Origin: a virus
Lineage: Duplodnaviria > Caudoviricetes
Length of the DNA: 64,000 nt
Direction: 5' to 3' (one strand)
Virus record (IMG/VR): IMGVR_UViG_3300027887_000012
Coordinates: 397-64,396 of that record
Every line of letters starts with the position of its first letter. Positions within the stretch are counted from its first letter, which is position 1. Under the pieces are notes generated by a model that searched no databases, had not been told where the DNA came from, and saw nothing but the letters and a program-made list of their open reading frames with translations. Made by a program: the position numbers and the translations under genes. This document shows, in pieces, positions 39,337-61,408 of the stretch.

Positions 39337-39954
39337 ATGGTTGGTACAGAAACATCAGGAAATTATGGTCATGCGGGCAGACCCGGAGAAGTCGGAGGCA
39401 GTGCGCCGGGTGGTGCCGCACCAAACCCACACCAAAACGTTGACGGGTTGGGAGAGGATTCTTATGGCGAATCAAACTATCGCGGGATAAAATTGATATC
39501 TTATGATAATATTGGTGATAAAGACAAAGCGTTTCAAAATGCGCATGATATAAAAAACGCGTTAGATAAAGCCCCTCAAAAAGATTACGAAGGATTAAAA
39601 GAACTTTACGTAACTGGTGGGGGGAGTTGGTTAGGTTCATCCTGTTATTTCCCAGAACATGATAGTCTGCTCTTAATGGATGGGTGGTTATCAAAAACAT
39701 CAGATGAAAGAGAGCGATCGTTACTTCACGAAATCGGGCATCGTGCGCAGTTTGTGACACGCAAACAGGACTTTGTTGATTTTCGCACTCATGGACTTAA
39801 AAAATACTTTTATGATGTTATTGACTCAAAATATTCTGATAATTATAAACCATCACAACACGCAGGGGAAACATTTGCGCAATCTTACGCATTATATCTT
39901 TGTAATATAAAACAACCAGAAGAATTAAATCAATTTTGGAGGGATAGGTTATGA
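39337..39954 (+). CDS. N-tagged zincin metallopeptidase effector
   Basis: MVGTETSGNYGHAGRPGEVGGS tag; LLHEIGH plus GETFAQSY. Confidence 0.75.
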   Translation: MVGTETSGNYGHAGRPGEVGGSAPGGAAPNPHQNVDGLGEDSYGESNYRGIKLISYDNIGDKDKAFQNAHDIKNALDKAPQKDYEGLKELYVTGGGSWLGSSCYFPEHDSLLLMDGWLSKTSDERERSLLHEIGHRAQFVTRKQDFVDFRTHGLKKYFYDVIDSKYSDNYKPSQHAGETFAQSYALYLCNIKQPEELNQFWRDRL

Positions 39955-40088
39955 AATTTGATAGTGTTCCCATAGAAGAATTCCCAAAAGAGCTGCGAAA
40001 AAAACTTATTGATAAAGTAATGGGTAAAAAAACAGTTATAGACTATGCGGTATCAAAGCCGATAGATAATAGACTGGTGAAAGAATGA
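39951..40088 (+). CDS. 45-aa partner with C-terminal PIDNRLV tag
   Basis: Not in ORF track; ATGA overlap; MKFDSVPIEEFPKELRKKLIDKVMGKKTVIDYAVSKPIDNRLVKE. Confidence 0.7.
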   Translation: MKFDSVPIEEFPKELRKKLIDKVMGKKTVIDYAVSKPIDNRLVKE

Positions 40089-40924
40089 AGGCGAAAGTTG
40101 AAAAGACCACAAAGAAAGAACCGAAAGAACCAAAAGATTCAAAAAAGGATATCCCGATGATAGATATTACTGATGAACACGATATTTACCGTGGAGAAGT
40201 CGAAACGCCGCGTGTATTGTGTATCATACCCGCGCGTGCAGGTAGTAAAGGCGTTCCCGACAAAAACATCAAACCTCTTTGGGGCAAACCACTTGTCTGG
40301 CACAGTGTGGAAGCTGCGAAAAACTGCGGGTATCCGTTGCAAAGAATTGTGGTATCAACAGAGTCACAACAGTATGCAGACATTGTGGAAGGATGGTGCG
40401 GTAAAGGATTGGTGCCGTTCTTACGCCCATCAGAGCTGGCGCACGATACAACCCCAACCTATCCAGTTATCATTCATACACTGGACACACTCAAAGAACG
40501 GTTCGGTGAAACCTATGATGTTGTCCTATTACTTGAACCAACCTCGCCACTGCGAACAGGACAACAGATCAATGAGGCATTGACCGCGTTGTTCCGGTCA
40601 AAGTATCGATCGATGGTATCTGTCTTCAAATCAGAACAATGTCATCCCGTTCTTGCGTTTAAGAAGGGCAGAGATGACCAGTTGCAACCATATGATGGTG
40701 CAGAATACCCCGCACACCCGCGCAGGCAGGCATTAAGCCCTGTCTATTTCATGGACGGGTCACTCTATGCATCATTCGTTGATACCTATCGACAAAAACA
40801 GAGTTTTGATCATGAGGACACTCTTGCATATGTCATGGAGGAATGGCAATCGTTTGAAGTCGATCACATCTGGGATTTCTATGTGATAGAAGGTATCCTG
40901 AAATGGAGGTCGGTGCCCGGATGA
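40085..40924 (+). CDS. neuA: acylneuraminate cytidylyltransferase (CMP-nonulosonate synthetase)
   Basis: IIPARAGSKGVPDKNIK, VVSTES, RPSELA.D, LEPTSPLR, DGSLY, SFEVD. Confidence 0.92.
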   Translation: MKAKVEKTTKKEPKEPKDSKKDIPMIDITDEHDIYRGEVETPRVLCIIPARAGSKGVPDKNIKPLWGKPLVWHSVEAAKNCGYPLQRIVVSTESQQYADIVEGWCGKGLVPFLRPSELAHDTTPTYPVIIHTLDTLKERFGETYDVVLLLEPTSPLRTGQQINEALTALFRSKYRSMVSVFKSEQCHPVLAFKKGRDDQLQPYDGAEYPAHPRRQALSPVYFMDGSLYASFVDTYRQKQSFDHEDTLAYVMEEWQSFEVDHIWDFYVIEGILKWRSVPG

Positions 40925-41145
40925 TACTTTACACGTTAACCGACTGCCCGAACTGCGATAACGTCAAAAGAATGTTGCACGCCGCAGGATATGAGTTTGA
41001 GGAGAAAGACATGTCCTCACCAGAATCGATTACTGAAATGCGGTTCAACGGGTGTTTTGAAATGAACGCTCCCGTGTTGCAGATTGAAGATAAATTCTAC
41101 AACTACGATCAACTCAAAGATGGTAAGATTTCAGAGGCGATTTAA
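40921..41145 (+). CDS. glutaredoxin/NrdH-like redoxin
   Basis: YTLTDCPNC...APVLQI; resembles methanogen NrdH-like proteins (from memory). Confidence 0.8.
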   Translation: MILYTLTDCPNCDNVKRMLHAAGYEFEEKDMSSPESITEMRFNGCFEMNAPVLQIEDKFYNYDQLKDGKISEAI

Positions 41146-41431
41146 AATGTGTGATAACTGTAAAGATAAATGTTCAAATTATCTCCCAACTGGGAAAAAG
41201 AGTTGTTATAAGAACAAATGTCATACGTGCGAATGCAGATGTTGCCCTGATAACTACGATTGCGAAACGCGCATTGCGAAATGTTGTTACTGTCAACACA
41301 CACCACAAAGGACTACATGGACATATACCTATCCCCCCACACCGTATTATTCAATCACATCAAATCAGTCAAACACACTATGAGGTGAGGTTACGAGTAA
41401 ATTTGTAAGTTATCGGGACGCACAAAAAATC

Positions 41432-42658
41432 ATGCCGGGTGGCAATGGACTTCTCTCAAAACGACCAGAGTTAAAGAGTGCGAACTATCCACAGTATGCC
41501 GATCGCGCGCATGGGTGCGAGATTGTTGCACAGAACAAAAAGTATCTTGACTTCCACCTGATGGGTATCGGGTGTTGCACTCTTGGATACTCGGATGAAG
41601 ATGTTGATGATGCAGTCAGAGAATGTATCCGTGACGGCAACATGACCTCTTTAAACTGTTATGAAGAATACGAACTGGCGGAACTCCTCTTAAAGACCAA
41701 TCCTGCAATGCACATGGTCAGGTTCAGTCGATTGGGTTGTGATGCACTATCACAGGCGATCAGAGTCGCGCGCGCGCATACAGGTAAATCTAAAATCCTA
41801 CATTGGGGATACCACGGGTGGCACGACTGGTATATGGCGGGTTCGTGTGAGTTTGACGCATCATTATATATGGGACCCAACGGGCAACCAAATGCAGGTA
41901 TCCCAAAATGCCTGAAGAAAAAGATTGGGCAGTTTGAACTTGATGCAGACCTGTCAAACGTTGCCGCGGTGATTCTTGAACCCGCACTGTTCACCACAGA
42001 TTTCTTGAATGAGGCGTGCCAAAAAACATATGATGCAGATGTGCCGTTGATCTATGACGAAATCACATCTGGGTTCAGGACACATCTTGGTGGCACGTAT
42101 CTTGACATAACGCGCAACTGGGACCCGGATATCGTGGTCTATGGGAAGGCGATGGGTAATGGGTATCCTATCTGCGCGATCGTTGGGAACGAACATGTTA
42201 TGAGTGCATATAATGACACGTTCGTATCGTCAACCTTCAACACAGAACGCACAGGATTTTGTGCCGCGATTGCCACTATTGAGAAGATGCAAAAGAATCG
42301 TGTGCAGGACACATTGGTTCGTAACGGAGGAGCTGTAAAGAAACTCTGGAAAGAAGCTGCGAAGGAATGCGGACTTAAACTTGAAATAACCGGCATTGAC
42401 CCGCTTGCGACCTTTGAATTCATTGAGGACGAACGATTTGATTATATTGATAAAGACGTATATGCAACTCTTTATCAACAAGAAATGGTGAAAAAAGGAT
42501 TTCTTGCAGGTAGTCAATATTACGCATCAGTCGCACACGACTTTGAGAAATCGGTTAAGTTTGAACTTGCAGTGCATGAAGTGTTCCACGACATTACCGA
42601 AAAAAACATGTATCCTGACAACGCACACATAATAAAACGCGGGGTCAAACACACATGA
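41432..42658 (+). CDS. class III aminotransferase (GSA-aminomutase-like)
   Basis: RAHGC...YLDF, VRFS..G, LIYDEITSGFR, DIVVYGKAMGNG, SSTF. Confidence 0.9.
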   Translation: MPGGNGLLSKRPELKSANYPQYADRAHGCEIVAQNKKYLDFHLMGIGCCTLGYSDEDVDDAVRECIRDGNMTSLNCYEEYELAELLLKTNPAMHMVRFSRLGCDALSQAIRVARAHTGKSKILHWGYHGWHDWYMAGSCEFDASLYMGPNGQPNAGIPKCLKKKIGQFELDADLSNVAAVILEPALFTTDFLNEACQKTYDADVPLIYDEITSGFRTHLGGTYLDITRNWDPDIVVYGKAMGNGYPICAIVGNEHVMSAYNDTFVSSTFNTERTGFCAAIATIEKMQKNRVQDTLVRNGGAVKKLWKEAAKECGLKLEITGIDPLATFEFIEDERFDYIDKDVYATLYQQEMVKKGFLAGSQYYASVAHDFEKSVKFELAVHEVFHDITEKNMYPDNAHIIKRGVKHT

Positions 42659-43278
42659 AAATCTTGGTAACAGGTGGGTCAGGGTTAATTGGTACTGCAA
42701 TTCGTCATCATTTAGTACCGAACACCATTATCAATTATGATCTCTATTTTGACTATGATGATTATATTGGTTGTAGTGCGCGCGTTGATGCGCGTATCCC
42801 ATTACACAAATATATGTATCCTGATCTTGATGTATTCATCGACTGCGCGCGATATGGCAAACCATCAGAACAGTTCATAACATGGAACACGGTTATCAAT
42901 CACTTTAAACAACAGGGTAAAGGCAAAATGATCCTGTTTTCATCAATCTATGGTCACAAGGTACCCGATTTCTCAATCTATCAAGATACAGAAATTGAAG
43001 AAACACCGATTGAATACGCGATCTGGAAGGCAGGCACAGAACACGCAACACGATTCTTGGCGCAGAAACTTAAACCTTATTACATTCAAGTTAATTGCAT
43101 TGCACCCGGTGGTGTTCATGATAAACAATCACTTGCGTTCCAACAACTTTATAAGGAAAGTGGTGGTGTATCGATGATCACAACAAAGAATATATTACCT
43201 GTTATTGATATGTTGTTACACAAAGACAACGCGATCAACGGGCAGGTAATAACGATCGATAAAGGATGGTCGTTATGA
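42655..43278 (+). CDS. short-chain dehydrogenase/reductase (PtmA-like)
   Basis: TGGSGLIG, FSSIYG, YAIWK, VNCIAPGG, GQVITIDKG. Confidence 0.85.
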   Translation: MKILVTGGSGLIGTAIRHHLVPNTIINYDLYFDYDDYIGCSARVDARIPLHKYMYPDLDVFIDCARYGKPSEQFITWNTVINHFKQQGKGKMILFSSIYGHKVPDFSIYQDTEIEETPIEYAIWKAGTEHATRFLAQKLKPYYIQVNCIAPGGVHDKQSLAFQQLYKESGGVSMITTKNILPVIDMLLHKDNAINGQVITIDKGWSL

Positions 43279-43974
43279 TTGATATGATATCAGACACACC
43301 ATATAAATGCCCGAAATGTAATCTGGTAGGTGTAGTAATGAAACGCGAACCACGAATACTGCATATGAAATGTGGTCGATGCGGTGCAACGTGGCAATGT
43401 AAAGAGGTGACTGGGAATTGAGTAACGATCAACCGTTCTTATGTGAAATCTGCGGGAAAATAGGTCGTGTAATGTGTGAACGACCGCAGATTGGTGGTGG
43501 TGTGACGTATGAAATGCGATGCGAATGTGGGAACGAATGGGGAGTCAACCGGTGGGTTCATGACAGGACATGACTATGACAACAACGGATAAATACGAAC
43601 TGTTTGAAATGCAGGACTTTGGGAAAGGCAGACTCATCATGGTTTCTCCCGGGTTTGATACTGTGAAAACCTATTATCTGCACCTGCGTAAAGACTCACC
43701 AGAGATGAAACTGCAAATCTTACGAACAAAAAAAGAAGTCGTGGATATGAGTGATTGGGAATGAGGAAAGAGTGGGATATGTTTGAGGGAATGTTTGAGT
43801 TTTTTTCGTTTGGATATATATTATCAACATTTACTACTACATTCGCATTTATTTATATGATTATTGAACCATCGATTAAAACTTTTACAATCATGATTTT
43901 ACTTGCTATTTTTGGTGCAATCTGTTGTTTGGCATGGGATGATCTCAATCGTTTCAGGATATGGTGTTTTGTGA

Positions 43975-44862: not shown

Positions 44863-45292
44863 CTTTGTATTCAAACAATTAATCGTTCATCCGGGCGGGT
44901 ATCACGTAAAATATACTTGCGTGAATCCGGGATGCGATATCTCATTCGAATTGCCAATGGATGACCCTGATGCAATAGACCCCTCTGTTAAACGGAATTA
45001 CAGGTCTATCAAACAGATGATAAAAGGGAATTATCCTGATTGCCCGTATACCTGCGATACCGATCCATTCAAACAGGCGCGTGAAGATAATATTAAGGAT
45101 TCCACATGAAACATAATTGGGTATTCACCGAAGCAAAACATGAGGATGGATGTACTGAACTGATTTTCAGGTGTTCAAATACAGGATGCACAAAATTCGC
45201 GTCATTCGCAACAGGCTCCCGGTATATCAGCCGAACCCTAAAATTCGGATTGGAAAAACTCAATAAGACCGAAACAAAATGGGATGTTTGCC

Positions 45293-45670: not shown

Positions 45671-45708
45671 TGATTGTAGTCGTTTATATTGATATAAAGG
45701 GGTGTAAT

Positions 45709-46125: not shown

Positions 46126-46148
46126 CCCAATCTGACTCCAGATTGACA

Positions 46149-46204
46149 GAAACTTATATTACCTCATAGGTCAATTAGTAATTGTAATACTGTCAACAGT
46201 ATTA
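46149..46204 (+). promoter_or_regulatory. early-type promoter with overlapping palindrome
   Basis: aaacTTATAT at 46154, TTGTAATAC at 46182-46190; TAATACTG-TCAA-CAGTATTA at 46185-46204. Confidence 0.75.
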
Positions 46205-46217
46205 TCGGAGTGATATC

Positions 46218-46572: not shown

Positions 46573-46956
46573 ATGATCGATGAATCTTTTGTTTGGAGAA
46601 CTATCAGGGAATATGCACCGAAGTTAGGTATTGACTGCCCAGTAGATTTGCGTATCAGGAGATTACGCGGGTCTTATGGAACATGTGGGTTACTTCTTCC
46701 TTCAAAATATAAGATGACGTTGGGATATAAACCAAAACCCGAACCGTATCAACGACCGTATATTGAACTCACTCTTGATCACGATCTTGTCTGCGGGAAA
46801 TATGGGATGGATAAGCTGCGTGACGTAATTATTCATGAACTGATACATGGCACAGGCAATCACACACACAACAAACATTTCTATGAAACCGCATTATCAT
46901 TAGGCATAGAGCTTGATCATGGGTCATACGAGAAGTTTGCCGCGTGTCATAGATAA
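46573..46956 (+). CDS. SprT-like metallopeptidase
   Basis: GTCG...IIHELIH...HNKHFY. Confidence 0.75.
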   Translation: MIDESFVWRTIREYAPKLGIDCPVDLRIRRLRGSYGTCGLLLPSKYKMTLGYKPKPEPYQRPYIELTLDHDLVCGKYGMDKLRDVIIHELIHGTGNHTHNKHFYETALSLGIELDHGSYEKFAACHR

Positions 46957-47023: not shown

Positions 47024-48601
47024 GTGAGTAAAGTAACTGTGGTTTTAAATGCATTAAATAATGGTGCGGAGATTGACGGTGCGATGATTGCCGCACTCGT
47101 TCAATCAAACAGAGATAATCGCAAACGCATGACCGACATGCATGGGCGATATATCGGGTCAAAAGAATCGATACCTGTGTTCAGTCGCGAATTCCTTGAC
47201 CAATCAAAAATAAACTCAAAACTCAATAATGATTTCTTCAGTGATATCGTAGATACCAAAGTCGGGTATCTTCTTGGTATTCCTGTAAGTTATACCTATC
47301 GTGAACCAGAACCCGACGAATCAACGGGTCAACCAAATCCTATTGAGGCACAAAACAAAAAGATCATTGATGAGAAACTTCAGGACTTCGCGCGCAGAGA
47401 GAATCTTTCAGAGGTCGATGCAGAAACCGCAAAGTTCGCCGCAATATGTGGGTTCGGTGCGCGACTGTGTTTTGTCGGCGAGGATGGCGATGAACATGTG
47501 CAGAACGTGTATCCGTGGGAGTGCATTTTCCTTGTCGATGACAATGACATTCAACATCCAGATTACGCATTGCGATATTGGGAAGAGGAGGTCGCAATCA
47601 GTGGGATAGATAACACTCAAACGATTTACAAGTGCGAGTTTTATGATGAGAAGAATATCTATTACTTCATACAGGTAATCGATACTTCCAATACTAACCC
47701 ATCACCAACCGCCTCACAAATGGTGACGTTTACATTAGACCCCAACAAACCACCTCAACCGCATATGTTCGCAACCTGCCCATTAATAGGATTCCCGAAC
47801 AATGATGAAATGATTGGTGACTGCGATAAAGTGTTGTCATTAATTGACGCATACGATCGCACACTCTCTGATCTATCTTCAGAACTGGAACAGATGCGGC
47901 TGGCATACATGGCAATCTATGGTGTAAGACCAGATGACGATTTCCTTGCACAAATCAAAAAGACTGGTACAATAGGGTTTGACGACCCGGAAGATCGTGT
48001 TGAATTTATCCAGAAGAATCTTAACGACACAGTAATTGAAAATCACTTGAATAGGTTGTGTGAAGATATCTATTATTTCAGTGGGTCGCCGAATTTCAGA
48101 GATCAGGCGTTCGCAGGTAATATCTCTGGGGTTGCACTGAAGTTTAAACTATTCAAACTGGAATCAAAATGTATATCAGCGGAACGTGAATTCCAAGTTG
48201 CACTGCATCAGATGTTTGAAATCGTTGGTACCAAATGGCAGATTGAAGCTGTTGACTTTGAACCAGATGATGTGGAGTATAAGTTTAAGAGAAACTTCCC
48301 ATTGAACCTTGCAGATGAGGCGTCCACAACCTCAATGTTGGCAGGACTTGTATCTGAAGAAACCAGACTCAAACAATTATCGTTCGTTCCAGACCCTAAA
48401 AAGGAGTTGGAATTAATGAAGGCAGAACAACAGGAACAGATTAACCTTCAACAATTCGCAAATGCGAATGCCCAGAACCCACAGGAACAACCTGCACAAC
48501 CCAACGCACAGGATCAAGGACAAAATCAAGTACAACCTCAACCGGGAGATTATAATTCTCCCGTGGGGTATCGACAGATGGATTATCAGGGGGTAAAGTA
48601 A
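47024..48601 (+). CDS. portal protein (SPP1 gp6-like)
   Basis: NDFFSDIVDTKVGYLLGIP, NNDEMIGD...LIDAYD, GNISGVALKFK, FKRNFP. Confidence 0.93.
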   Translation: MSKVTVVLNALNNGAEIDGAMIAALVQSNRDNRKRMTDMHGRYIGSKESIPVFSREFLDQSKINSKLNNDFFSDIVDTKVGYLLGIPVSYTYREPEPDESTGQPNPIEAQNKKIIDEKLQDFARRENLSEVDAETAKFAAICGFGARLCFVGEDGDEHVQNVYPWECIFLVDDNDIQHPDYALRYWEEEVAISGIDNTQTIYKCEFYDEKNIYYFIQVIDTSNTNPSPTASQMVTFTLDPNKPPQPHMFATCPLIGFPNNDEMIGDCDKVLSLIDAYDRTLSDLSSELEQMRLAYMAIYGVRPDDDFLAQIKKTGTIGFDDPEDRVEFIQKNLNDTVIENHLNRLCEDIYYFSGSPNFRDQAFAGNISGVALKFKLFKLESKCISAEREFQVALHQMFEIVGTKWQIEAVDFEPDDVEYKFKRNFPLNLADEASTTSMLAGLVSEETRLKQLSFVPDPKKELELMKAEQQEQINLQQFANANAQNPQEQPAQPNAQDQGQNQVQPQPGDYNSPVGYRQMDYQGVK

Positions 48602-48799
48602 ATGGGTGGACCCGGTAGTGGACCCAGACCCGGTAGTGGCAAACGACATTCACCGAAGAATCTTGTCACAACTGGTACAAAGAAAGTATCGACAAAGACT
48701 ATGAAATCAAACTGGCAATCGAACAACCCTTGGACTTCAGGCAGGAGAATCCCGCCAATGGAAGGTTCAAGGTCAAGAGTATTGAAATCAAAGAAGTGA
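48602..48799 (+). CDS. small basic peptide with MGGPGSG tag
   Basis: MGGPGSGPRPGSGKRH...; starts directly after portal stop. Confidence 0.65.
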   Translation: MGGPGSGPRPGSGKRHSPKNLVTTGTKKVSTKTMKSNWQSNNPWTSGRRIPPMEGSRSRVLKSKK

Positions 48800-48808
48800 G
48801 GACGAATC

Positions 48809-49645
48809 TTGGGTGGTGCAGGTAGTGGTTGGTTCGCATCGGCAGGACACGTATCCCATAAAACCGTTGATGTTTTACAGGTAGGACGCATTGACAAAGA
48901 GTATGCGAAAATCCCCAACAACTACGAGATCGAACATATTAATGGGCATTATGATAAGGACGCGTTTGAATCAATTGGCGCATATACCAATGCAAGTGGT
49001 GACTATACAACCATCAATAAAATAATGCGCGGTATTGATCCCAGTGACGAGAAGTATGGTCATCCAGATCAGATTTGGGTATATCGAACGCACGGACTTA
49101 TCCCGAAGGATGAGGCAATCATGCAGGCACAAAAAGATATTGAAAATCTCAATCGCGCAATGGAGAAAACCCCATTAAAAGGAGATGTGAAAGTATATCG
49201 CGGAGTACCAGAATATCTGGCAAACACTTTAATATCAGGAAAAACAATAACTGATAACGCATTTCAGTCCACTTCTTTATCATTGCGTCCAGCGTCAAAG
49301 TTCTCCTTTGTGTATTCAAACAACAACAACTCCAAGACGATCGATGTTTTGGAATTCGTTGCAAAGAAAGGTGAACCATCGATTTTTTCTGAAGATTATG
49401 GTGAGAAAGAACTGATCCTGAAAGGCGGTCAGTATAAAGCGATATCTTACACTCTTGCAACGACTCTCAAAGACCCAGATGGTGAAATTCCTACTTATTA
49501 CAAACCAACGCGCATTATTCAGGTAGAACGTATCCCAAAGACAGGACAACAAACCACGTTCGTTAAAACCGACCCCGGCAATCCTGCATTAGATTTCGCA
49601 AAACAAGTTGAGTCATCGAAGATCGCTGGTGCAACTCCCGCATGA
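48809..49645 (+). CDS. N-tagged ADP-ribosyltransferase (R-S-E clade)
   Basis: TTG start; MGGAGSGWFASAGH tag; YT...YTTIN, VYRG, FQSTS, GEKELIL. Confidence 0.85.
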   Translation: MGGAGSGWFASAGHVSHKTVDVLQVGRIDKEYAKIPNNYEIEHINGHYDKDAFESIGAYTNASGDYTTINKIMRGIDPSDEKYGHPDQIWVYRTHGLIPKDEAIMQAQKDIENLNRAMEKTPLKGDVKVYRGVPEYLANTLISGKTITDNAFQSTSLSLRPASKFSFVYSNNNNSKTIDVLEFVAKKGEPSIFSEDYGEKELILKGGQYKAISYTLATTLKDPDGEIPTYYKPTRIIQVERIPKTGQQTTFVKTDPGNPALDFAKQVESSKIAGATPA

Positions 49646-50223: not shown

Positions 50224-50367
50224 ATGGGTGGACCCGGTTCAGGTAGAAAGGCAACAGGTCGTGCCGCAAAACCCGCAGGAAAAAAGAGTATTCCTGATAA
50301 GGAACGCACGCACGTACCCAAATATTTTGGGTTTGGTATTGGATTCAGAATGGTCAAACGAAAATGA
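50224..50367 (+). CDS. 47-aa basic peptide with MGGPGSG tag
   Basis: Not in ORF track; AGGTGA RBS; MGGPGSGRKATGRAAKPAGKKSIPDKERTHVPKYFGFGIGFRMVKRK. Confidence 0.65.
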   Translation: MGGPGSGRKATGRAAKPAGKKSIPDKERTHVPKYFGFGIGFRMVKRK

Positions 50368-50817: not shown

Positions 50818-50819
50818 CT

Positions 50820-52344: not shown

Positions 52345-52358
52345 GGGGGTAACTCCTT

Positions 52359-55241
52359 ATGGCATACTTCTATCCTCAATGGAAATTTGTTCAAAGGATA
52401 GCGGTAGCTAATCCCCCTACAACAACCGGATATCAGGTAAAAATCACTATTCCTTGGAAACCCGGTATGCGGGATGATTTCGCAGACCTACGTTTTTCAG
52501 ATTATAAAAGAATATTACCATATTGGATAGAAACCACTTCGACAACAACCCGCGTATCGGCTGTTGTATGGGTAAAATTAACCGAAACTAATAATAACGC
52601 AATAGAATTTTTCTGTTATTACGGGAATGGTACTGCAACTTCAGAATCTACGGGGTCAATCTTTGAACTGTTTGACGATTTTACGGGGTCATCTCTTGAT
52701 ACTACATTATGGACGAGGATTGATGGAACAGATGATACGATATCAAATTCTGTTTTTAAGACAACGCTTGCCGATCACACAGGAGTTTATGAGGGTATCC
52801 GTACCAATTCAGCAGTCGCGGCGACATGTAGATTAGTCTTTTATGAAAAAGTATATATCAATGGGTCAAGCGAAACACATCACGGATTCTATATCGGGGA
52901 TGGAGCCTCGAATCTTTACTTTACCGGATGGGCAGATCCTGATGTTTATTGGGATGGGGTAAGTACCAATTATTACACCGGGATAACTTCAGGCGTTTTT
53001 GCACGATATGAATGTATCCGTAATGGAGCAACGAACACACTGGTTTATTGTAATAACGTTTATCTGGGAGCTGATACAGTAGGGGATACTGGGGAACATC
53101 AAGTCGGATTCTTGTGTGATACCAGTACTGGAATAAACAACGCATTTGAATTAGATTGGGTATTCGTTACAAAATATCAGGGAGCTGATCCTGTTTGTAC
53201 CCCTGCACAAATACTCATTAACCCCCCATATTATCAATCGTTAATCGGTCAAAAACTTGCATTAGCCCCTTCAGCCCCCGGCACATCCAATCCATTAGTT
53301 CTTGATTCGGGTACACTGGATAATGATTATCTTGACATTCAACGGACAACATCTACCGTAACTAAAACTGCATCCTATGACATTTTACGGGCAAGTCAAA
53401 CCGTTAGTAAATCAGCGGCATATAAAATCGCGCGGGTAACAGCCGCGATTACGAAAACATCCGCGTATAAAATCCAAAGGGTAACGCAAACAGTAACAAA
53501 AACAGCCACGTATGATATTTTAAGAACAACCTCTGCGGCGATCACAAAATCAGCCGCGTATAAGATTGCCCGCGTAACAGCCGCAATTACAAAAACCGCG
53601 TCATATGATATTCAACGGATTAGTCAATCGGTAACAAAAACCGCAACCTATGATATCTTACGGGTATCCCAAACAGTTTCAAAAAGCGCGGCGTATAAAA
53701 TTTTACGGATAACCCCTTCAACAATCACAAAGACCGCACAATATGAGGTTACTCCCGCTACTACTACGGGAACGGTAACGGTTACAAAGACTGCGGCATA
53801 TAAAATCGCGCGGGTCATAACAACAATCACAAAGACCGCGAACTACGATATTCAACGGATAACCCAGACTATTACTAAAGGTGCGGCATACAAGATTCTA
53901 TCCTCCCTGACCGTAGCAAAACAGGCAAGTTATGATATCCTCCGCCCTACCCAGACCCTTACGAAACAGGCAAAATATAATATCATCCCGATAGGCGCAA
54001 CAGTTACACTCACAAAGAACGCGGCATATAAGATTGCCCGCGTTACTTCAGCGATTACCAAAACTGCGACCTACGATATCTTACGGATTACACTGGCAGT
54101 TCAAAAGGCGGCGGCTTATAAAATTTTAACCTCGCCAACATTAACGAAACAGGCGGCATACCGCATCCTACGACTTACCCCCTCAACCATCACTAAATCA
54201 GCCACGTATGATATCCTACGGATTACTCCTGCGGTCATTACGAAACAGGCGGCGTATAAAATCGGCAGGGTAACATCTGCGCTTACAAAAACTGCCAATT
54301 ACGATATAATCAATACAAAGACAATCTATGTTTCAGCATCCTATTGGATTTTAGGACAATCCACAAACACACAAACGGTTACAAAGAGCGCGGCATATAA
54401 AATTCAGCGCATACCGCAGACTGTAACAAAGACTGCGAAGTATAATATTGCCCTGCTTGCCTCCCCCTTCACAGTATCAAAGAGTGCCGCGTATAAAATC
54501 GCAAGAGTAATTACCGCAATCACAAAATCGGCAGACTACCACATTCAGAGAATCTCACAATCAGTTACAAAATCCGCAACCTATGATATTCAAAGGGTAT
54601 CCCAAACAGTAACAAAATCTGCGGCATATAAAATCCAATCCAGTAAAACGATTACGGTATCGGCAACATACTGGATTTTTGGTCAGGGAATAGGTAGTCA
54701 AACCATTACTAAATCAGCCGCGTATAAGATTCAACGGATATCCCAGACAGTTCAAAAGACGGCGCAATATAAGATTAGTAGTTCTGTAGCGGTAGTTAAA
54801 TCTGCATCCTATAAAATATTAAGGATTACAACAGCCCCGGTTACAAAGGCGGCTCAATACCTCATTCAAAGGATTACCCCTACTACCATCAGTAAATCAG
54901 CGCAGTTTAAAATAGCGGTAAGTAAAACAGTATCTAAACAGGCATCATATAAGATTAAGATCACAGGTGGTTCAGGTGGCGGAGGGGGTACAGGAGATTA
55001 TTCTGGTCTTATACAAGTCGATGCGAAATATCAGATCACGCCCGCTGGGTCAAACATTGTCTTTACTACTGCAACATATAAGATTAAACAGACCGGCGGG
55101 TCGGGTCCCGGTGGGTCAAAGGTTATTCAAGTGACTGCATCATATGGTATTATCAATCCTAACTGGCACGAACCTTACTGGTATGAACGCGCATTCCATG
55201 AAAAAGAAATGGTCTGGAATATAAGACAGAGGCGATCATAA
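52359..55241 (+). CDS. DUF2341-type adhesin with ~38 short tandem repeats
   Basis: DFADLRFSD...LPYWIE...VWVKL...YYGN...FELFDDF N-terminal domain; repeats of [TS]K[TSQ]AxY[KD]IxR. Confidence 0.75.
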   Translation: MAYFYPQWKFVQRIAVANPPTTTGYQVKITIPWKPGMRDDFADLRFSDYKRILPYWIETTSTTTRVSAVVWVKLTETNNNAIEFFCYYGNGTATSESTGSIFELFDDFTGSSLDTTLWTRIDGTDDTISNSVFKTTLADHTGVYEGIRTNSAVAATCRLVFYEKVYINGSSETHHGFYIGDGASNLYFTGWADPDVYWDGVSTNYYTGITSGVFARYECIRNGATNTLVYCNNVYLGADTVGDTGEHQVGFLCDTSTGINNAFELDWVFVTKYQGADPVCTPAQILINPPYYQSLIGQKLALAPSAPGTSNPLVLDSGTLDNDYLDIQRTTSTVTKTASYDILRASQTVSKSAAYKIARVTAAITKTSAYKIQRVTQTVTKTATYDILRTTSAAITKSAAYKIARVTAAITKTASYDIQRISQSVTKTATYDILRVSQTVSKSAAYKILRITPSTITKTAQYEVTPATTTGTVTVTKTAAYKIARVITTITKTANYDIQRITQTITKGAAYKILSSLTVAKQASYDILRPTQTLTKQAKYNIIPIGATVTLTKNAAYKIARVTSAITKTATYDILRITLAVQKAAAYKILTSPTLTKQAAYRILRLTPSTITKSATYDILRITPAVITKQAAYKIGRVTSALTKTANYDIINTKTIYVSASYWILGQSTNTQTVTKSAAYKIQRIPQTVTKTAKYNIALLASPFTVSKSAAYKIARVITAITKSADYHIQRISQSVTKSATYDIQRVSQTVTKSAAYKIQSSKTITVSATYWIFGQGIGSQTITKSAAYKIQRISQTVQKTAQYKISSSVAVVKSASYKILRITTAPVTKAAQYLIQRITPTTISKSAQFKIAVSKTVSKQASYKIKITGGSGGGGGTGDYSGLIQVDAKYQITPAGSNIVFTTATYKIKQTGGSGPGGSKVIQVTASYGIINPNWHEPYWYERAFHEKEMVWNIRQRRS
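53361..55160 (+). repeat. intragenic ~13-20 aa tandem repeats (about 38 counted)
   Basis: e.g. TVTKTASYDILRASQ, TVSKSAAYKIARVTAA. Confidence 0.9.
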
Positions 55242-56785
55242 TGGCATCACCATCACAAAACCCATATCAGACTGCGCATTTGCAGGATGTATTCAAACAC
55301 CTTGCAGATTACGCGCAGACTCGTATGGCAGACTTTGAAAAGTTGTCGGCACCAGATTACGCGCGCGCAATGCAGGAAGTCAGAAACGTTGTTGCAGATG
55401 CATATGGGCAATACGGTCAAGCTGGTACACTTACTTATGCAGAAATGCAACGGTACAATCGTATAGGTAAACTAAAATCGGAAATCGAATATGCAATAAA
55501 AAACAACCTGCGTGAAGTTGCACCGAAGGCACAAAAGATACTCACAGATACCGCAAATTACTCTTATAACGGGAGTGCGAATATTGCGGCGCAATTGACA
55601 ACCATAAAACTACCAAAACTATCTGCGCAGGAAGTATCTGACATTATCAACAAATCACCGGGAATTGGGCCCGGCATGTCGTTTATTGACCGCATGAGAT
55701 TACGACAATCTGATACCATTGTGCGTATGCAAAAAGACGTGATGCGTCAACTCATGAAACCAGACGGCGCGCCGTTAGAGGACACATGGGCATCAATTCA
55801 ATCATCAATGGAAAAGACATATCTGCGAGATATCGCCGCATTAAAAGACGAGGCGCATCATGTATCTCAAAGTGCGATTGATGCAAGTGTGAAATATGGG
55901 ACCGATGCAGGACTCAAACCCGTTAAAATCTGGATGACCGCTGGTGATGAGAAAGTAAGACCTGCACACGCGGCACTTGATGGGCAGGTAAGAGATGCCA
56001 ACGAACCGTTTACTGTTGGTGAAGATACAACCTTTGCAAGCGGGTCTGGTACAGAATGGGATGGGTATCAGGCAATGGCACCAATGGAGTTTGGTGAACC
56101 TGCACTTGACTATAATTGCAGGTGTTGGATAGTGGCAGATTGGAGAGATTCTGGTGAAGAATCGGTTGATCCTGATATTCGTGTAGAAGCTGCAACCAGA
56201 CACGCGGACGCGGTTGATCGTTCTGATAGTATCATGAACCTCTTTAATAAGATCGTTAGTGATTATGGCGGTGACATTAACGGAGATTACAATCTTACAA
56301 ATTATCGAACAAAGAGCGAACCTTCTATCGCAGAGAAAATCTCGCGCAAAATGGATATGGCAAATCGATATAACGAGCCCATGACCGTTCAAGAAGCTGC
56401 CGACAGTATCAAAGATTATTCACGATTTACCGCAGAATTCCCCCCAGATATTTACACTGAAGGTTATTATATGACCTACGATTCACTTTTAAAAGAAGGG
56501 TGGGAACCAGTTGATGTTGAAAACAAATGGGTATCGAACCCAGAATATCATGGGATTAACACACAATGGAAACTACCAGACGGTAATTATGTAGAAGTGC
56601 AGTTCCACACACCAGAAGGATCAAACTATATGCAGGGGACAGGACATAAATTATATGAGGCGTATCGGACAAGTGACGATCTCTATACAAAATGGTCACT
56701 ATGGTCACAAATGGTTGACAACTGGGAATCAATCGACCAACCCCCCGGGATTGATGAGATCACTGATTATAAGGGAGGCGCATAA
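55241..56785 (+). CDS. MuF (SPP1 gp7-like) minor head protein fused to RelA/SpoT-like nucleotidyltransferase
   Basis: KIWMTAGDEKVRPAH..LDG...NCRC MuF motif; RTKSEPSIAEK...KDYSRF...YHGIN...EVQFHT C-terminal domain. Confidence 0.85.
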   Translation: MASPSQNPYQTAHLQDVFKHLADYAQTRMADFEKLSAPDYARAMQEVRNVVADAYGQYGQAGTLTYAEMQRYNRIGKLKSEIEYAIKNNLREVAPKAQKILTDTANYSYNGSANIAAQLTTIKLPKLSAQEVSDIINKSPGIGPGMSFIDRMRLRQSDTIVRMQKDVMRQLMKPDGAPLEDTWASIQSSMEKTYLRDIAALKDEAHHVSQSAIDASVKYGTDAGLKPVKIWMTAGDEKVRPAHAALDGQVRDANEPFTVGEDTTFASGSGTEWDGYQAMAPMEFGEPALDYNCRCWIVADWRDSGEESVDPDIRVEAATRHADAVDRSDSIMNLFNKIVSDYGGDINGDYNLTNYRTKSEPSIAEKISRKMDMANRYNEPMTVQEAADSIKDYSRFTAEFPPDIYTEGYYMTYDSLLKEGWEPVDVENKWVSNPEYHGINTQWKLPDGNYVEVQFHTPEGSNYMQGTGHKLYEAYRTSDDLYTKWSLWSQMVDNWESIDQPPGIDEITDYKGGA

Positions 56786-57372
56786 TGGTAGGCGGGCCCG
56801 GGTCAGGTAATTTTGGTCATGCAGGACGACCGGGAGAGGTTGGTGGCAGTGCGAGTGTAGGCAGTGCGCCGAAATCTTCACCAGAAAGTAAAAACATAGG
56901 TCATGGGTCACGATTGAATGGTCATCCTAAAACAGAGGCAAAACGCATTAAAGAAGGTGTGCCAAAAGAAGTCAAAGAACGAAAACATGGGATAGAAGAA
57001 ATCACGTATGCCTATACTGGGTTGAGTGAAATGAAAGTCGATGCACCAAAAGTCGATCGTTCAAACATCCCAAAGAACGATATCGAACGACAAGGCAGAT
57101 GTTTTGAACTTGCAGGCAGGTTTGTTATGGATAATCCCGATTGGAATATCGTTCATGCGACCTTATACCCACGACTTGGAAATTTCGGTGACAGTATTTA
57201 CTTTCATGGGTATGCGCAAAAAGATAAGATTATCTTTGACCCGGTGTTTAATCAGTTCTTTAATGCAGACAAACACGAAAAATATTATACGACAACAGAT
57301 AAACGTATATACGATCACACAACGGCAATGAAAATGATGTTAAAATCTGGCAATTATGGGCCATGGGAGTAA
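56785..57372 (+). CDS. N-tagged papain/transglutaminase-like effector
   Basis: MVGGPGSGNFGHAGRPGEVGGS tag; GRCFELA...HGY...IFDP putative Cys-His-Asp triad. Confidence 0.6.
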   Translation: MVGGPGSGNFGHAGRPGEVGGSASVGSAPKSSPESKNIGHGSRLNGHPKTEAKRIKEGVPKEVKERKHGIEEITYAYTGLSEMKVDAPKVDRSNIPKNDIERQGRCFELAGRFVMDNPDWNIVHATLYPRLGNFGDSIYFHGYAQKDKIIFDPVFNQFFNADKHEKYYTTTDKRIYDHTTAMKMMLKSGNYGPWE

Positions 57373-57374
57373 CT

Positions 57375-57668
57375 ATGGAATCAACTGATACCGCACCAGT
57401 TTATGAGGTTAAATCTCAACAGTCTTTTTTAACAAAAGAAGATGCAATAAAACTCATGATGAAATCGGCGCAATATTATAAACAACGCCCAGTGTATTCA
57501 GGAATAAAAAAGGATATAATAATAAAATTCGATGGTAATTTCTCATACTGGTCACCATTAGATCAGATGTGGATAAAAGACGATTACCTGTTTAAAGAGT
57601 GTATGCAAGGACATATGGAACGAATCACGTATGATGAGGCAATGAAAATGATTGAGGAGTTGAAATAA
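57375..57668 (+). CDS. small protein, candidate immunity protein
   Basis: YY...FSYWS...W..DDYLF...ERITYDEAMKMIE; lies in toxin cluster; untagged. Confidence 0.45.
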   Translation: MESTDTAPVYEVKSQQSFLTKEDAIKLMMKSAQYYKQRPVYSGIKKDIIIKFDGNFSYWSPLDQMWIKDDYLFKECMQGHMERITYDEAMKMIEELK

Positions 57669-58414
57669 TGGGTGGTCCCGGTAGTGGATGGTTTGCGAGT
57701 GCAGGACATGTACCGCATGTAACTGAACTGGTATCTGGTATGCGATATGCACCAGAGGTAATGAACACGATAAATCAAAAGTTCGCACGACAACCGAAAG
57801 GTCAAGGAAAATCTGTTCCGTTAAAAAAGGATGAACTCAACGCTGTCCTTAATGCGGGAAAATATGGGTTGGTCAGTGCGGGACCCAACACGAAAGAAAC
57901 TGATGCAGGCGCGAAAGATAAGGATAAAGACGAACAGTATTTCCGCGATCGTCACGATCAACTTAAATCATCACTGAATGAAATGGGATATCAATATACT
58001 GAAGTCGTTGGGAAATATGGAGAGATAGAAGATTCGTTCCTCATAATGACTCACGAAACTGATAAGGCAGACCTGATGAATCTCGGTATGAAATTCAATC
58101 AGGACAGTGTGATTTATGGTGAAGGTGGTAAACAGGAGATGATCTACACTTCAAAATCCTATTACGAAATCGGTGAGAAAGGCGATCCTAATTACAAGCG
58201 TATCCCAGTAACAATCGGTGACGCGCATGTTGGTACAGGATTCGATACCGTTGATTTAGAGGCAAATAACTATTATACTGAAGTGCCAACTCCTGAAGGC
58301 AAAGTCAGGTTCAGTTTGCATTATGATTTTGAGAAGGTGCAAACTTCAACCCTTGGTGATTATAAATCAAAGGATTATCAATCATCTTCACCGATTGATA
58401 ACAGGCAGGTGTGA
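57668..58414 (+). CDS. N- and C-tagged SAM-lyase-like (T3 SAMase/DUF3293-like) protein
   Basis: MGGPGSGWFASAGH tag; YGLVSA...RHDQL..SL...GKYGEIEDSF...FNQDSVI; ends PIDNRQV. Confidence 0.6.
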   Translation: MGGPGSGWFASAGHVPHVTELVSGMRYAPEVMNTINQKFARQPKGQGKSVPLKKDELNAVLNAGKYGLVSAGPNTKETDAGAKDKDKDEQYFRDRHDQLKSSLNEMGYQYTEVVGKYGEIEDSFLIMTHETDKADLMNLGMKFNQDSVIYGEGGKQEMIYTSKSYYEIGEKGDPNYKRIPVTIGDAHVGTGFDTVDLEANNYYTEVPTPEGKVRFSLHYDFEKVQTSTLGDYKSKDYQSSSPIDNRQV

Positions 58415-58415
58415 T

Positions 58416-59063
58416 ATGGGCGGTGAAGGTTCTGGTAACTTCGGTCACGCAGGCAGACTCGGTGAGGTAGGAGGATCATCAACCGAAGGATCATCATTAT
58501 CATCAGACCACGTCAAACAAATAAAAGAGAATTCAAAGGATTTCGCACAACGAGATTATAATAAGGCGGATTATGAACATATGATTGCATATAAAAATGG
58601 GAATTATACCTACGAATCAAAAACGCATGATAGGGCAAGTTGTCAAATTGCCGAAGATATTGATGATATGGATTTGGTACACAATCACCCGGGAGGATCA
58701 CCAGCCTTATCTGCGCCAGATATTTTCGTGTCTGCATATCAAAACGTATCATCAATAACGGCAATGAATCGTAAAGGAGAGGCATGGACAGTATCACGAC
58801 CAAAAGAAGGTTGGGCGAAATGGGCAGATGATAAGTTTGGTATGAAAGTTGACACATCTGAATTTCAAAAAACCGTGCGATCTCAATTTGATAAGACCTC
58901 GGATGAAGTATTTGATTTACCAGAAATGCAACCACTTCATCTTGCGTTTACCAGAGGAGAGATTGATTTAAATGGGGTGGAAGTTATATTTGCAAACAAG
59001 ACCTCTGAAACATTCTGTAAAAAGTATGGTTTGACAGTGACAAAACATGGTGGTGCAAAATGA
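58416..59063 (+). CDS. N-tagged JAB/MPN domain effector
   Basis: ATG 58416; MGGEGSGNFGHAGRLGEVGGS tag; LVHNHPGGSPALSAPD (HxH...S..D). Confidence 0.7.
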   Translation: MGGEGSGNFGHAGRLGEVGGSSTEGSSLSSDHVKQIKENSKDFAQRDYNKADYEHMIAYKNGNYTYESKTHDRASCQIAEDIDDMDLVHNHPGGSPALSAPDIFVSAYQNVSSITAMNRKGEAWTVSRPKEGWAKWADDKFGMKVDTSEFQKTVRSQFDKTSDEVFDLPEMQPLHLAFTRGEIDLNGVEVIFANKTSETFCKKYGLTVTKHGGAK

Positions 59064-59185
59064 TTCTTGATGAAGATGAATTCTGGAGGAAGATGCAGGA
59101 AAAATATCTTGAAAAAGTGCGCATCTGGCAAAAAGAACGATCGAAAACAAAATCAGAACCGATTGACAATCGACAGGTGAAATAA
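59060..59185 (+). CDS. 41-aa partner with C-terminal PIDNRQVK tag
   Basis: Not in ORF track; MILDEDEFWRKMQEKYLEKVRIWQKERSKTKSEPIDNRQVK; overlaps both neighbours. Confidence 0.7.
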   Translation: MILDEDEFWRKMQEKYLEKVRIWQKERSKTKSEPIDNRQVK

Positions 59186-60507
59186 TGGGTGGTGAAGGTT
59201 CGGGTAACTTCGGTCATGAAGGTAGACCGGGATTAGTAGGCGGGTCGGGGGAAGGCGGGCCCGGTGTAGGTGCGGCAGGTGCAAAGTTCGATCGTGCCTC
59301 TTATGAGAAAATGTCAATGGGTGACCGACGCGCATCTTGGGATAAATTATCTGTTGCAGATCGTGACAAACTCGCAGACGCGCGATACAGTGTTGACAGT
59401 CGCGTAAAAGGACTGGTATCAACCATGGGTGCATGGCAGAATACTGGTGATCTTGAAAAGGATGTGCAGGCGCGCGTTGACAGTGCAAAAGAAGAAATGT
59501 CACAGAGTTCAAACAATCTTGTTTCATATACCGCAACCATTTATGATGACTCGTTAAAGGCGGCAGGAGTTGATGACGAATCTCGCGGCAAACTGGTATG
59601 CCTTGCAACAGATTACTTAATCGCACAGGAAATGGAAACCCAGAACCGACAGTTAGGAGATCATGGTGTTCATCATATCGCTGGGGATATCGACCGCGCA
59701 TTCCAGATTGCATCGGTCTTACCCGAAGGATTGAGTAGTCAACAGAAATGTGAGATTATTACTGCAAGTGTGTTTCATGATGCAGGATACTTAACAGACC
59801 CGTCACGAATATTCTTGGATGAAGGTCATCCGCGGTGGTCTGCGCAGAACTATGATCAGAACATCGCACCGGTGATTTCTGCCGCGTTCGGGAAAGATGT
59901 TGCAGATAATGTTGGATATTACATACGCACGCATGATAGTACCGATATCAACTGGAAAGAAGACCCTGTGGGAAGTAGTGTAAGAGTATCAGATAACACC
60001 GCGTTGTTTGAAGTCGATAAACTACCCGGGGTTTTCAGAGATGTAAAAGGAACATATCAGACTCTATCAGATTTCAATGCAGGAAAAATCAATCTGGAAG
60101 ATGCGAAATCGAATATGATGACCGACATTCATAACTCCGCACTATCCGACTCGTTAAAATCGCGGTATATGAACGCGGTCACTGAAATGACCGACTATAC
60201 CCCAAAATCTACACTTGGGATGAAAGGCGGTGACATTTACGATATCACTTGGGCAGGAGATCACGTTGCGATTACGTTAAAATACAACGAACAGAAAACA
60301 CAGGATCAAAAACTCCTTGATCTGGGGCAGGCACAATTCGCAAAGTTCGCGAAGGCATATGGCAGTGACCCATATTCATTCAAAACCACCCTTGGTTTTA
60401 CGTTCGATAAGAACGGTCAGGTTCTACTTGAAGGAAGAATCTATGACCCAGATAAACCACTAACTGCGGTGTATTCAGAACCGATTGATAACAGGCAGGT
60501 GAAGTGA
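59185..60507 (+). CDS. N- and C-tagged HD-domain phosphohydrolase
   Basis: MGGEGSGNFGHEGRPGLVGGS tag; DHGVHH...VFHDAGY...H...RTHD...DN; ends EPIDNRQVK. Confidence 0.8.
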   Translation: MGGEGSGNFGHEGRPGLVGGSGEGGPGVGAAGAKFDRASYEKMSMGDRRASWDKLSVADRDKLADARYSVDSRVKGLVSTMGAWQNTGDLEKDVQARVDSAKEEMSQSSNNLVSYTATIYDDSLKAAGVDDESRGKLVCLATDYLIAQEMETQNRQLGDHGVHHIAGDIDRAFQIASVLPEGLSSQQKCEIITASVFHDAGYLTDPSRIFLDEGHPRWSAQNYDQNIAPVISAAFGKDVADNVGYYIRTHDSTDINWKEDPVGSSVRVSDNTALFEVDKLPGVFRDVKGTYQTLSDFNAGKINLEDAKSNMMTDIHNSALSDSLKSRYMNAVTEMTDYTPKSTLGMKGGDIYDITWAGDHVAITLKYNEQKTQDQKLLDLGQAQFAKFAKAYGSDPYSFKTTLGFTFDKNGQVLLEGRIYDPDKPLTAVYSEPIDNRQVK

Positions 60508-61238
60508 TGACAGATGAGGCAGATGGGATCTGGGTAACAATGAATGGGAGGCATGTCTTTATTCCCGGTGAGAATATTAACGAATCGTCTGAAGTCACCA
60601 TCAATGTGCCAGACGATTCTGAAATATGTAAGTTTGATCTTGGCACAGGAGGGGTTGTTGACGTTGTTGATAAAAACAAGGAAAATCAACGCAATGCCAT
60701 AGGTTGGTGGAAAGGCAGTGGGTTTGAGGTCATACAAAAGGCAGTCAAGACTCCAAACGATTTGTTTAAACCAGATCGCGAAAAAGGATTGGAGGCATCC
60801 AAACATATTGATAATGTTCTATCAAAAAGTAAGATAGAACAGGATACCACAGTATATCGTGGCATATCAAGTAGAACCGCATACCAGATAATGGAGAATG
60901 GCGCATTTGAGAACAAAGGATATACCGCGACCTCGGTTGCAATGGGTGACGCAATGGGATTCGCTCAACACATGCCATTAAAGATGGAAGATTCTTACGT
61001 TCCCGGAAGAGATTTGCAAAGTGTGATAATGTTCAATGTTCCTAAAGGATCGAGCGGGTTTTATTTTGGAAGAGGTAGGGAAAGTGAAGTGTTATTACCA
61101 CGCAATCTCAAATTAAAACTCACAGGTGTTCGCACATACACAAAAACATTAAATGTGAAAACAATAACGGATACAGGAAGATTACGACAACAAACATATG
61201 GCCCAGTGAGGATATACACAATGGAGATGCAGAAATGA
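60507..61238 (+). CDS. ADP-ribosyltransferase (R-S-E clade) with WVTMNGRHVFI leader
   Basis: VYRG, GYTATS, RESEVLLPR. Confidence 0.85.
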   Translation: MTDEADGIWVTMNGRHVFIPGENINESSEVTINVPDDSEICKFDLGTGGVVDVVDKNKENQRNAIGWWKGSGFEVIQKAVKTPNDLFKPDREKGLEASKHIDNVLSKSKIEQDTTVYRGISSRTAYQIMENGAFENKGYTATSVAMGDAMGFAQHMPLKMEDSYVPGRDLQSVIMFNVPKGSSGFYFGRGRESEVLLPRNLKLKLTGVRTYTKTLNVKTITDTGRLRQQTYGPVRIYTMEMQK

Positions 61239-61408
61239 TTGAACGATTCTTTGAAGATTCTACTGATGGGCTCATCTTTATAAAATCAAAGATTACTCCT
61301 GAAGAAAGAAAACGCAGTAAAGAGTTATTGAGTATCATCTACCCAGTGAACCGCGAATCACAAAAAGAATCGGTAAAATCTGGTGCGATTGATAACAGGC
61401 AGGTATAA
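61235..61408 (+). CDS. 57-aa partner with C-terminal IDNRQV tag
   Basis: Not in ORF track; MIERFFEDSTDGLIF...SVKSGAIDNRQV; ATGA overlap. Confidence 0.7.
   Translation: MIERFFEDSTDGLIFIKSKITPEERKRSKELLSIIYPVNRESQKESVKSGAIDNRQV

Follow-up and report, generated by a model that had tools for sequence, protein, structure and literature searches.

Why should eight unrelated proteins of one tailed virus, seven of them encoded among its head genes, begin with forms of the same glycine-rich peptide? The question is raised by a stretch of 64,000 nucleotides (the window), which makes up nearly the entire 64,396-bp IMG/VR virus record IMGVR_UViG_3300027887_000012 and whose genes lie almost all on the + strand. 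Seven + strand open reading frames (ORFs, named here by their first position) open with (M/MV/L)GGxGSG, and one more has a degenerate form; we term this peptide the tag, or header, and the protein behind it the cargo. The long (class-1) tag, GGxGSGNFGHxGR(P/L)GxVGGS after an M(V) start, is found on ORFs 56785, 58416 and 59185, and the class-2 tag, GGxGSGWFASAGHV, on ORFs 48809, which has a TTG start, and 57668. ORF 39337 bears a degenerate class-1 tag without the GGxGSG core (MVGTETSGNYGHAGRPGEVGGS), and ORFs 48602 (65 amino acids, aa) and 50224 (47 aa) have MGGPGSG and a basic tail only. The leader of ORF 60507, WVTMNGRHVFI, is not a GG tag and is treated below as a second header.

A six-frame count of the core motif GG.GSG gives 7 copies in the window, compared with a mean of 0.09 and a maximum of 1 in 200 shuffled sequences, and none of them lies outside the starts of tagged ORFs. 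No copy is more than 7 residues from the start of its ORF, and each of these ORFs has a Shine-Dalgarno-like sequence, such as AGGCAGGTG 6 nt upstream of ORF 58416. The tags of the window share a mean nucleotide identity of 69%, and 63% of same-residue codon pairs among them use different codons. The proportion is about 60% across the window and two other loci with many tag copies (L004 with 16 and L061 with 9), and the switches include those between TCN and AGY for Ser and between CGN and AGR for Arg. Since the synonymous sites are scrambled in this way, it is the peptide and not the DNA that is under selection. The cargo parts show no mutual similarity once the tags are removed; the best BLASTP match (E 0.1) comes from a shared C-terminal tail. 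Much of the original prediction, made from the letters and ORF translations of this DNA, is borne out here. Its nine ORF starts are as described, it had noted the synonymous codon differences and the unrelated cargoes, and its clustering with head genes is seen in the seven of eight tagged ORFs that lie between portal (47024) and scaffold (62916), around the MuF gene. Its stand-alone cassettes are likewise real, each unit of the window being a separate gene in which a single cargo domain follows a single tag.

The first 40 residues of ORF 56785 were searched against 5.8 billion proteins. Eighty-six proteins of similar length carry a near-invariant GGxGSGNFGHAGRPGEVGGS, with topoisomerase I, PI3/4-kinase-like, Fic, GNAT, Zeta, DRAT and ART (ADP-ribosyltransferase) domains as cargo; in most of them a leader of 10-100 aa, and not a start codon, precedes the peptide. 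Longer proteins gave 321 matches with 2-7 tag copies each; with their ART-PolyVal, MuF or portal domains, they are of the usual polyvalent type. A tag profile built from 53 sequences and searched against 1.84 billion proteins recovered 4,984 representative proteins (829 at E<=1e-10) with up to 10 copies per protein. Those with 2-10 copies carry ART-PolyVal, MuF, portal, Zeta, Fic, GNAT, NUDIX and 2H/Acb1 domains. The consensus is a variable residue followed by GG[PK]GSGNFGH[AS]GRPG[EQK][VI]GGS and then by a stretch rich in Ser, Gly, Pro and Asp. The tag is always followed by this flexible linker and a module, with medians of 239 aa between copies and 230 aa from the last copy to the stop codon. 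In one JGI contig, six genes of a 24-kb locus next to portal and MuF together carry 16 copies. Exact-pattern scans located the tag in more than 115 IMG/VR contigs, and also in 23 genome contigs whose bins are assigned to Clostridia, Dehalococcoidia, Omnitrophota, Elusimicrobia, Acidobacteria, Eggerthellaceae, a gammaproteobacterium and one Methanomassiliicoccales metagenome-assembled genome (MAG). Lachnospiraceae, Oscillibacter, Desulfosporosinus and Eggerthellaceae are among the sources of contigs with the tag.

GGxGSGNFGHxGRPGxVGGS is thus a module separator of phage polyvalent proteins, and the modular, head-linked tag system to which the window belongs is real and widespread. The tie to MuF toxins and polyvalent proteins proposed in the original prediction turns out to be direct, as the same peptide parts the modules of these proteins, including those fused to MuF or portal. 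The N-terminal placement that it took as typical does not generalize: elsewhere the peptide is mostly internal or follows a leader of 10-100 aa. Literal motif strings of both headers returned no relevant paper in the literature searched, and the peptide is not described in Iyer et al. 2017 (PMC5512222) or Jamet et al. 2017 (PMC5576092). No chain in the PDB matches the tag by sequence. Among the cultured phages of INPHARED the head region has no megablast match, and a polyvalent protein gave two weak domain matches only. Relative to the polyvalent-protein and MuF-toxin literature searched, the peptide is probably a new, undescribed label.

Stand-alone tagged genes are also found in independent lineages (G014, L029-L031, L083, L087 and L127); in the complete genome G014 such a cargo, starting MKLTLRFKGG..., adjoins the terminase. 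A peptide that did no more than separate domains would be dispensable on genes of this kind, which recur across lineages. Many stand-alone tagged proteins have a minimal leader of 7-10 aa, hydrophobic-x-(I/L)R(L/F)KGG (MELVIRLKGG, MKLTLRFKGG), which resembles the LVLRLRGG tail of ubiquitin. Examples are P0037, P0051, P0062, P0075 and the G014 genes L164 7471-8619 and 18003-19532 and L167 12108-12749.

The best reading of these sequences, to which we give a probability of roughly one half, is that the header serves as a label for cargo loaded into the capsid. Each tagged ORF would then be one cargo unit of a polyvalent protein, composed of header, flexible Gly/Ser/Pro linker and one enzyme. Most phages string such units behind a MuF or portal domain, whereas in this virus each has its own ribosome-binding site and start codon. 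The header would be an address label that stays on the mature unit and marks it as head cargo, to be loaded, to be held in the procapsid or to leave with the DNA, and the labeled enzymes would reach the next host along with the genome. Head proteins that are packaged and ejected include Alt and the internal proteins of T4, Dar of P1 and gp7 of SPP1. Fused units would probably be released by a lineage-specific cut just before GG, with the invariant peptide staying on the unit. Methionine aminopeptidase takes off Met before Gly, and for the units of the window, initiation of translation and loss of Met would leave the same GG end with no need of a protease. The earlier idea that this Gly-Gly could act as a ligation nucleophile found no support beyond its expected exposure on Met removal. 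As the window, G014 and other lineages keep the peptide on separately encoded units, a label is favored over a linker that is only scissile.

Several findings weigh against a label for head cargo. The cassette at 39337 lies 7 kb from the head module. A tblastn search of INPHARED with the tag found no match, possibly through low-complexity masking, and no cultured carrier of the tag was seen. Single-sequence AlphaFold2 models of ORFs 58416 and 56785 were unusable, with a mean predicted local distance difference test score (pLDDT) of 32 and 41, respectively. A survey of 26 tag-bearing records, each of at least 40 kb, disclosed no conserved reader or partner of the tag among MuF, the capsid protein, MPTase-PolyVal or BLASTP families. 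MuF, present in 19 of the 26, is missing from 4 of the 12 near-complete genomes (at least 90% complete) even with a custom profile. The capsid-protein family of the window occurs in none of the 26, and an all-against-all BLASTP comparison of the 12 near-complete genomes and the window showed none of their protein families to be common to more than 6 of the 13. Proteases add to these points. Five ORFs without assigned function between portal and MuF could hide one in the window, and DUF2213 (PF09979), labeled head maturation protease by PHROGs, occurs in 16 of the 26 records. Asp precedes GG in 17 of 28 tag copies from DUF2213-positive records, compared with 2 of 17 from the others, and processing may be the main role of the peptide in the DUF2213 lineages.

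The alternative that survives best, at a little under half the weight of a cargo label, is that the peptide is mainly a proteolytic signal separating the units of cargo polyproteins, and that stand-alone tags were inherited from a recent split or serve for leader removal. It accounts for a peptide at every module boundary, in up to 10 copies per protein, and for the leaders of 8-60 aa before the tag in many stand-alone homologues. The DUF2213 gene adjoins MuF where it occurs: it follows MuF in the 84.5-kb contig that holds P0092, where its relatives have the same PHROGs label, and lies directly behind MuF at 17706-19310 of L222. Its product is a candidate processing enzyme and Asp-GG a candidate cut site. 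The Asp-GG pattern is suggestive only, as it follows lineage and hence is not independent evidence; in DUF2213-negative records, apart from the 2 copies with Asp, the position before GG holds K, L, N, H or the initiator Met. The near-invariant 20 residues far exceed a protease site, and the variable position is precisely the residue ahead of them. DUF2213 is present in 7 of the 12 near-complete genomes; the remaining 5, like the window, have no recognized head protease. The record of the window has no match to S78, S78_2, S77, S49, ClpP, Mu-like_Pro or DUF2213 and has a scaffold gene of its own; in the 26 records S78 and S49 are absent, ClpP occurs once and MPTase-PolyVal not at all. That the tag is kept in the window with none of these seven head-protease families found suggests that it is more than a protease site. 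Its eight stand-alone genes, moreover, keep the peptide under protein-level selection in three diverged subclasses, which would be hard to explain for a leftover. The split form, with the peptide kept on single-enzyme genes and no recognizable head protease, thus suggests that a label function is separable from cutting. A general claim that tag-bearing phages all lack a head protease was rejected on the DUF2213 count, and the protease-free statement is limited to the window and some lineages. The C39 peptidase of double-glycine leaders (PF03412) has no match in the record; nothing precedes GG in the window, and the conserved part lies after GG and not before it.

As every protein family found is confined to 6 or fewer of the 13 genomes, no structural protein of these viruses comes near the 20-mer in conservation, and such conservation without a conserved phage partner points to a structural feature of the head, to DNA or another universal partner, or to intrinsic chemistry. 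The tag-bearing proteins also differ in portal family. It is accordingly conceivable, if rather improbable, that the tag has no packaging role and acts after delivery in the infected cell, by contacting a universal partner (nucleic acid, ribosome or chaperone) or by keeping the enzyme inactive or unfolded. Conservation beyond that of phage structural proteins, in near-complete genomes of 30-65% guanine plus cytosine and in contigs binned with many bacterial phyla, would suit a conserved or non-phage partner, and the GGPGSG core resembles phosphate-binding glycine loops. A net charge near zero and Glu at one conserved position make a poor fit to nucleic-acid binding, no particular partner emerged, and the strong tie to portal and MuF, in both genomic position and fusion, needs no such role.

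We regard as unlikely an inert hinge or recombination joint that persists because cassettes shuffle between genes and phages. Cassettes are indeed exchanged, the same cargo occurring with different headers, and a repeated DNA element is found at gene junctions of the window. With scrambled synonymous sites and nucleotide identities of 69-75%, however, the tags would be poor substrates for homologous recombination, and an inert hinge would not fix N, F, H, R, P and V. Least probable of all is co-translational or self-catalyzed chain separation (a prokaryotic counterpart of 2A, or Asn-mediated autocleavage), for which one can cite a long invariant peptide at polyprotein junctions, an N-F-G-H spacing equal to that of the N-P-T-H autocleavage loop of FlhB/YscU and a lineage-independent conservation that would fit a ribosomal or chemical constraint, but the peptide is kept at the extreme N terminus of stand-alone proteins, where there is nothing to separate, and Trp replaces Asn in the class-2 tag.

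The systems closest to a cargo label differ from it in instructive ways. Polyvalent proteins of phages and conjugative elements were proposed to be packaged and injected, with processing by a zincin MPTase (Iyer et al. 2017, PMC5512222). The window shares their domain repertoire of conflict enzymes (ART, zincin, RadC/JAB, HD and SAM-related enzymes) and their late position beside virion genes, relatives show the fusion to MuF or portal, and its tag is their junction peptide. Its units, however, are separate genes and not one multi-domain polypeptide, and the MPTase of Iyer et al. is absent from all 26 tag-bearing records; relatives that share the tag do have the polyvalent form, with 2-10 modules per protein. 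In the MuF polymorphic toxins that temperate phages encode (Jamet et al. 2017, PMC5576092), toxin-like domains can be swapped on a MuF head protein and small genes follow downstream; Jamet et al. describe no conserved junction motif. In the window the MuF gene 55241 is likewise followed directly by cassettes, whereas the tagged proteins have no MuF domain of their own.

The capsid targeting sequence (CTS) of T4 is a peptide of about 10 residues, confined to T4-like phages and cut by the gp21 protease at L/I-x-E. Like the tag, it is a short N-terminal peptide, portable in principle, on unrelated proteins (IPI-III and Alt) that include an ADP-ribosyltransferase. CTS proteins are packaged in the head, as is proposed for the tagged proteins. 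The tag is unrelated to the CTS in sequence, seems to be kept on the mature unit and spans very different phages; no match to S77 (PF03420) was found in the record at E<=1, and no L/I-x-E consensus flanks the tag. With single-domain ORFs that have no MuF domain, no S77 protease and no L/I-x-E site, the window thus belongs neither to the polyvalent-protein and MuF-toxin systems nor to the T4 CTS system, while appearing similar to both in its working. The closest functional analogy is with the cargo-loading peptides of encapsulins; those of Family 1 are C-terminal, and their binding to the shell has been demonstrated. They too are short, conserved, Gly-rich peptides joined by a flexible linker to diverse enzymes and conserved across distant lineages. 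They direct these enzymes into a shell of the HK97 fold, as the tag would on the cargo reading. The two peptides differ in sequence and in the end of the protein they occupy, and tag-bearing phages differ in their capsid-protein families.

The subclasses of the window are not peculiar to it. The WFASAGHV form is found in other viral contigs, both at MGG starts and internally, and stands beside a class-1 copy in one protein of L032; a further form, GGPGSGRHPGG, leaves GGxGSG as the common core. The leader of ART 60507, singled out in the original prediction as different, is a genuine alternative and belongs to a second header family of the same kind. A protein search with this header gave nothing significant, and a DNA pattern scan detected it in 23 viral contigs, in both N-terminal and internal positions. 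Its consensus is [DE]G.W[VI]TI[ND]G.H[VI]FI (L031 4628-5716 and 7223-8596; L201-L221), and two copies per protein are present in L210, L212, L214 and L220. In L031, a distant relative of the window (portal identity 45%), the orthologue of the HD-like protein 59185 (45% identity) starts MPEYDESEGTWVTINGNHIFI, with the WVT header in place of the GG tag, and the L031 zincin bears the same header. The G025 orthologue of 59185 has the GGxGSG core behind a leader of about 40 aa. One and the same cargo can therefore bear either header.

Somewhat more tentatively, the GG tag and, in parallel, WVTxNGxHxFI might form a cargo signal that is transferable and general among tailed viruses, read by a structurally conserved feature of HK97-type heads or of packaged DNA, and any protein bearing it would be loaded and injected. 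They would then be the phage counterpart of encapsulin targeting peptides, and a catalogue of injected effectors would be at hand in the roughly 5,000 clusters of tagged proteins. If the header marks head cargo, proteins injected by uncultured phages could be listed from sequence only. That list would include many enzymes without an assigned function that may counter host defense, and the header would be a candidate means of putting proteins of choice into the phage particles of laboratory strains.

The features of the locus are collected in Table 1. The head module is SPP1-like in its portal, MuF, scaffold and capsid genes; a terminase lies at 32100 and tail genes at the start of the window. 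PF04233 matches ORF 55241 only and none of the tagged ORFs.

Table 1. Tagged cassettes, head genes and neighboring ORFs of the window
Position	Strand	Feature	Match or remark
39337..39954	+	Zincin cassette: degenerate class-1 tag MVGTETSGNYGHAGRPGEVGGS, Gly/Ala/Pro linker	Domain with HEIGH zincin motif
39951..40088	+	45-aa ORF after zincin cassette	C-terminal end PIDNRLVKE (shared tail)
47024..48601	+	Portal protein, SPP1 gp6 type	PF05133 E 1.4e-82; phrog_64
48602..48799	+	65-aa ORF, MGGPGSG and basic tail	Same frame as next cassette, single TGA between
48809..49645	+	ADP-ribosyltransferase, class-2 tag LGGAGSGWFASAGHV, TTG start	PF03496 E 6.9e-9; phrog_3895
50224..50367	+	47-aa ORF, MGGPGSG and basic tail	Start context repeated at 48577-48616 (repeat family D17)
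55241..56785	+	MuF minor head protein (SPP1 gp7-like), C-terminal extension, untagged	PF04233 E 6.4e-9; PHROG head-morphogenesis families
56785..57372	+	Class-1 tag MVGGPGSGNFGHAGRPGEVGGS, Ser/Pro linker, domain without family assignment	
57363..57668	+	101-aa untagged ORF between cassettes	No family match
57668..58414	+	SAM-lyase-like domain, class-2 tag MGGPGSGWFASAGHV	PF23780 29.5 bits (cut-off 28); C-terminal end SPIDNRQV
58416..59063	+	JAB/RadC-like domain, class-1 tag MGGEGSGNFGHAGRLGEVGGS	JAMM motif HNHPGGSPALSAPD; RadC E 0.083
59060..59185	+	41-aa ORF	C-terminal end EPIDNRQVK
59185..60507	+	Class-1 tag MGGEGSGNFGHEGRPGLVGGS, Gly-rich linker, 400-aa domain with HD-like motifs	C-terminal end EPIDNRQVK
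60507..61238	+	ADP-ribosyltransferase with alternative header GIWVTMNGRHVFI	PF03496 E 6.1e-10
61235..61408	+	57-aa ORF	C-terminal end AIDNRQV
62916..63578	+	Head scaffolding protein	phrog_172 E 1.6e-20
63625..64000	+	Major capsid protein, N-terminal part, cut by record end	phrog_267 E 3.9e-31

The cargo names given in the original prediction fared unevenly. Pfam supports both ADP-ribosyltransferases and the SAM lyase, and the JAB assignment of 58416 is backed by an exact JAMM motif, beside which the RadC match is weak. The zincin (39337) and HD (59185) labels are motif-based only. The papain- or transglutaminase-like label of 56785 found no support in Pfam, PHROG or the ESM Atlas, where the matches to its cargo were limited to viral clusters without a name and weak YunG-like leads, nor in its AlphaFold2 model. 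ORF 39337, which sits among sugar-pathway genes outside the head module, has no Pfam or PHROG match; a comparable zincin with a degenerate tag is also present in L031. A small untagged ORF directly upstream of the portal gene (46573-46956) has a HELIH zincin motif and weak SprT/WLM-like matches. The 101-aa ORF 57363 is possibly a partner or immunity gene.

Five ORFs share a C-terminal peptide, (S/E/K/G)(P/A)IDNR(Q/L)V(K)(E), encoded at 40045-40087, 58377-58419, 59145-59187, 60467-60509 and 61371-61404. It ends the cargo proteins 57668 and 59185 and three small ORFs (41-57 aa), each of which lies behind a cargo gene. The underlying DNA (GATAACAGGCAGGTG) also serves as ribosome-binding site of the next gene, and the peptide is kept despite synonymous changes (AGG to CGA, ATT to ATA). 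It is absent from 2.2 Mb of other tag-bearing loci.

At 48602-49645, the 65-aa ORF and the ART cassette are in frame across one TGA (..KSKK, stop, GRILGGAGSG..), and the RILGG before the ART tag fits the consensus that precedes internal tag copies. Readthrough of this TGA could yield a two-tag fusion; the alternative is initiation at TTG with a GAGGA Shine-Dalgarno sequence. Readthrough of ORF 50224 into the next ORF was ruled out by two intervening stops. Between portal and MuF, a 960-aa protein (52359-55241) with a DUF2341 domain contains more than 13 copies of a 45-nt (15-aa) repeat (..TK.A.Y.I..; repeat families D1-D4) and may be a head fiber or adhesin. As to the host, none of 22 Methanomassiliicoccales genomes contains a match to the portal, the window's proteins have none in the archaeal MAG contig L019, and an ESM Atlas search with the aminotransferase of the window gave no clue. 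The 59 called genes end in TAA (30), TGA (27) or TAG (2), and one tRNA-Gln(UUG) gene is present at 31474-31548.

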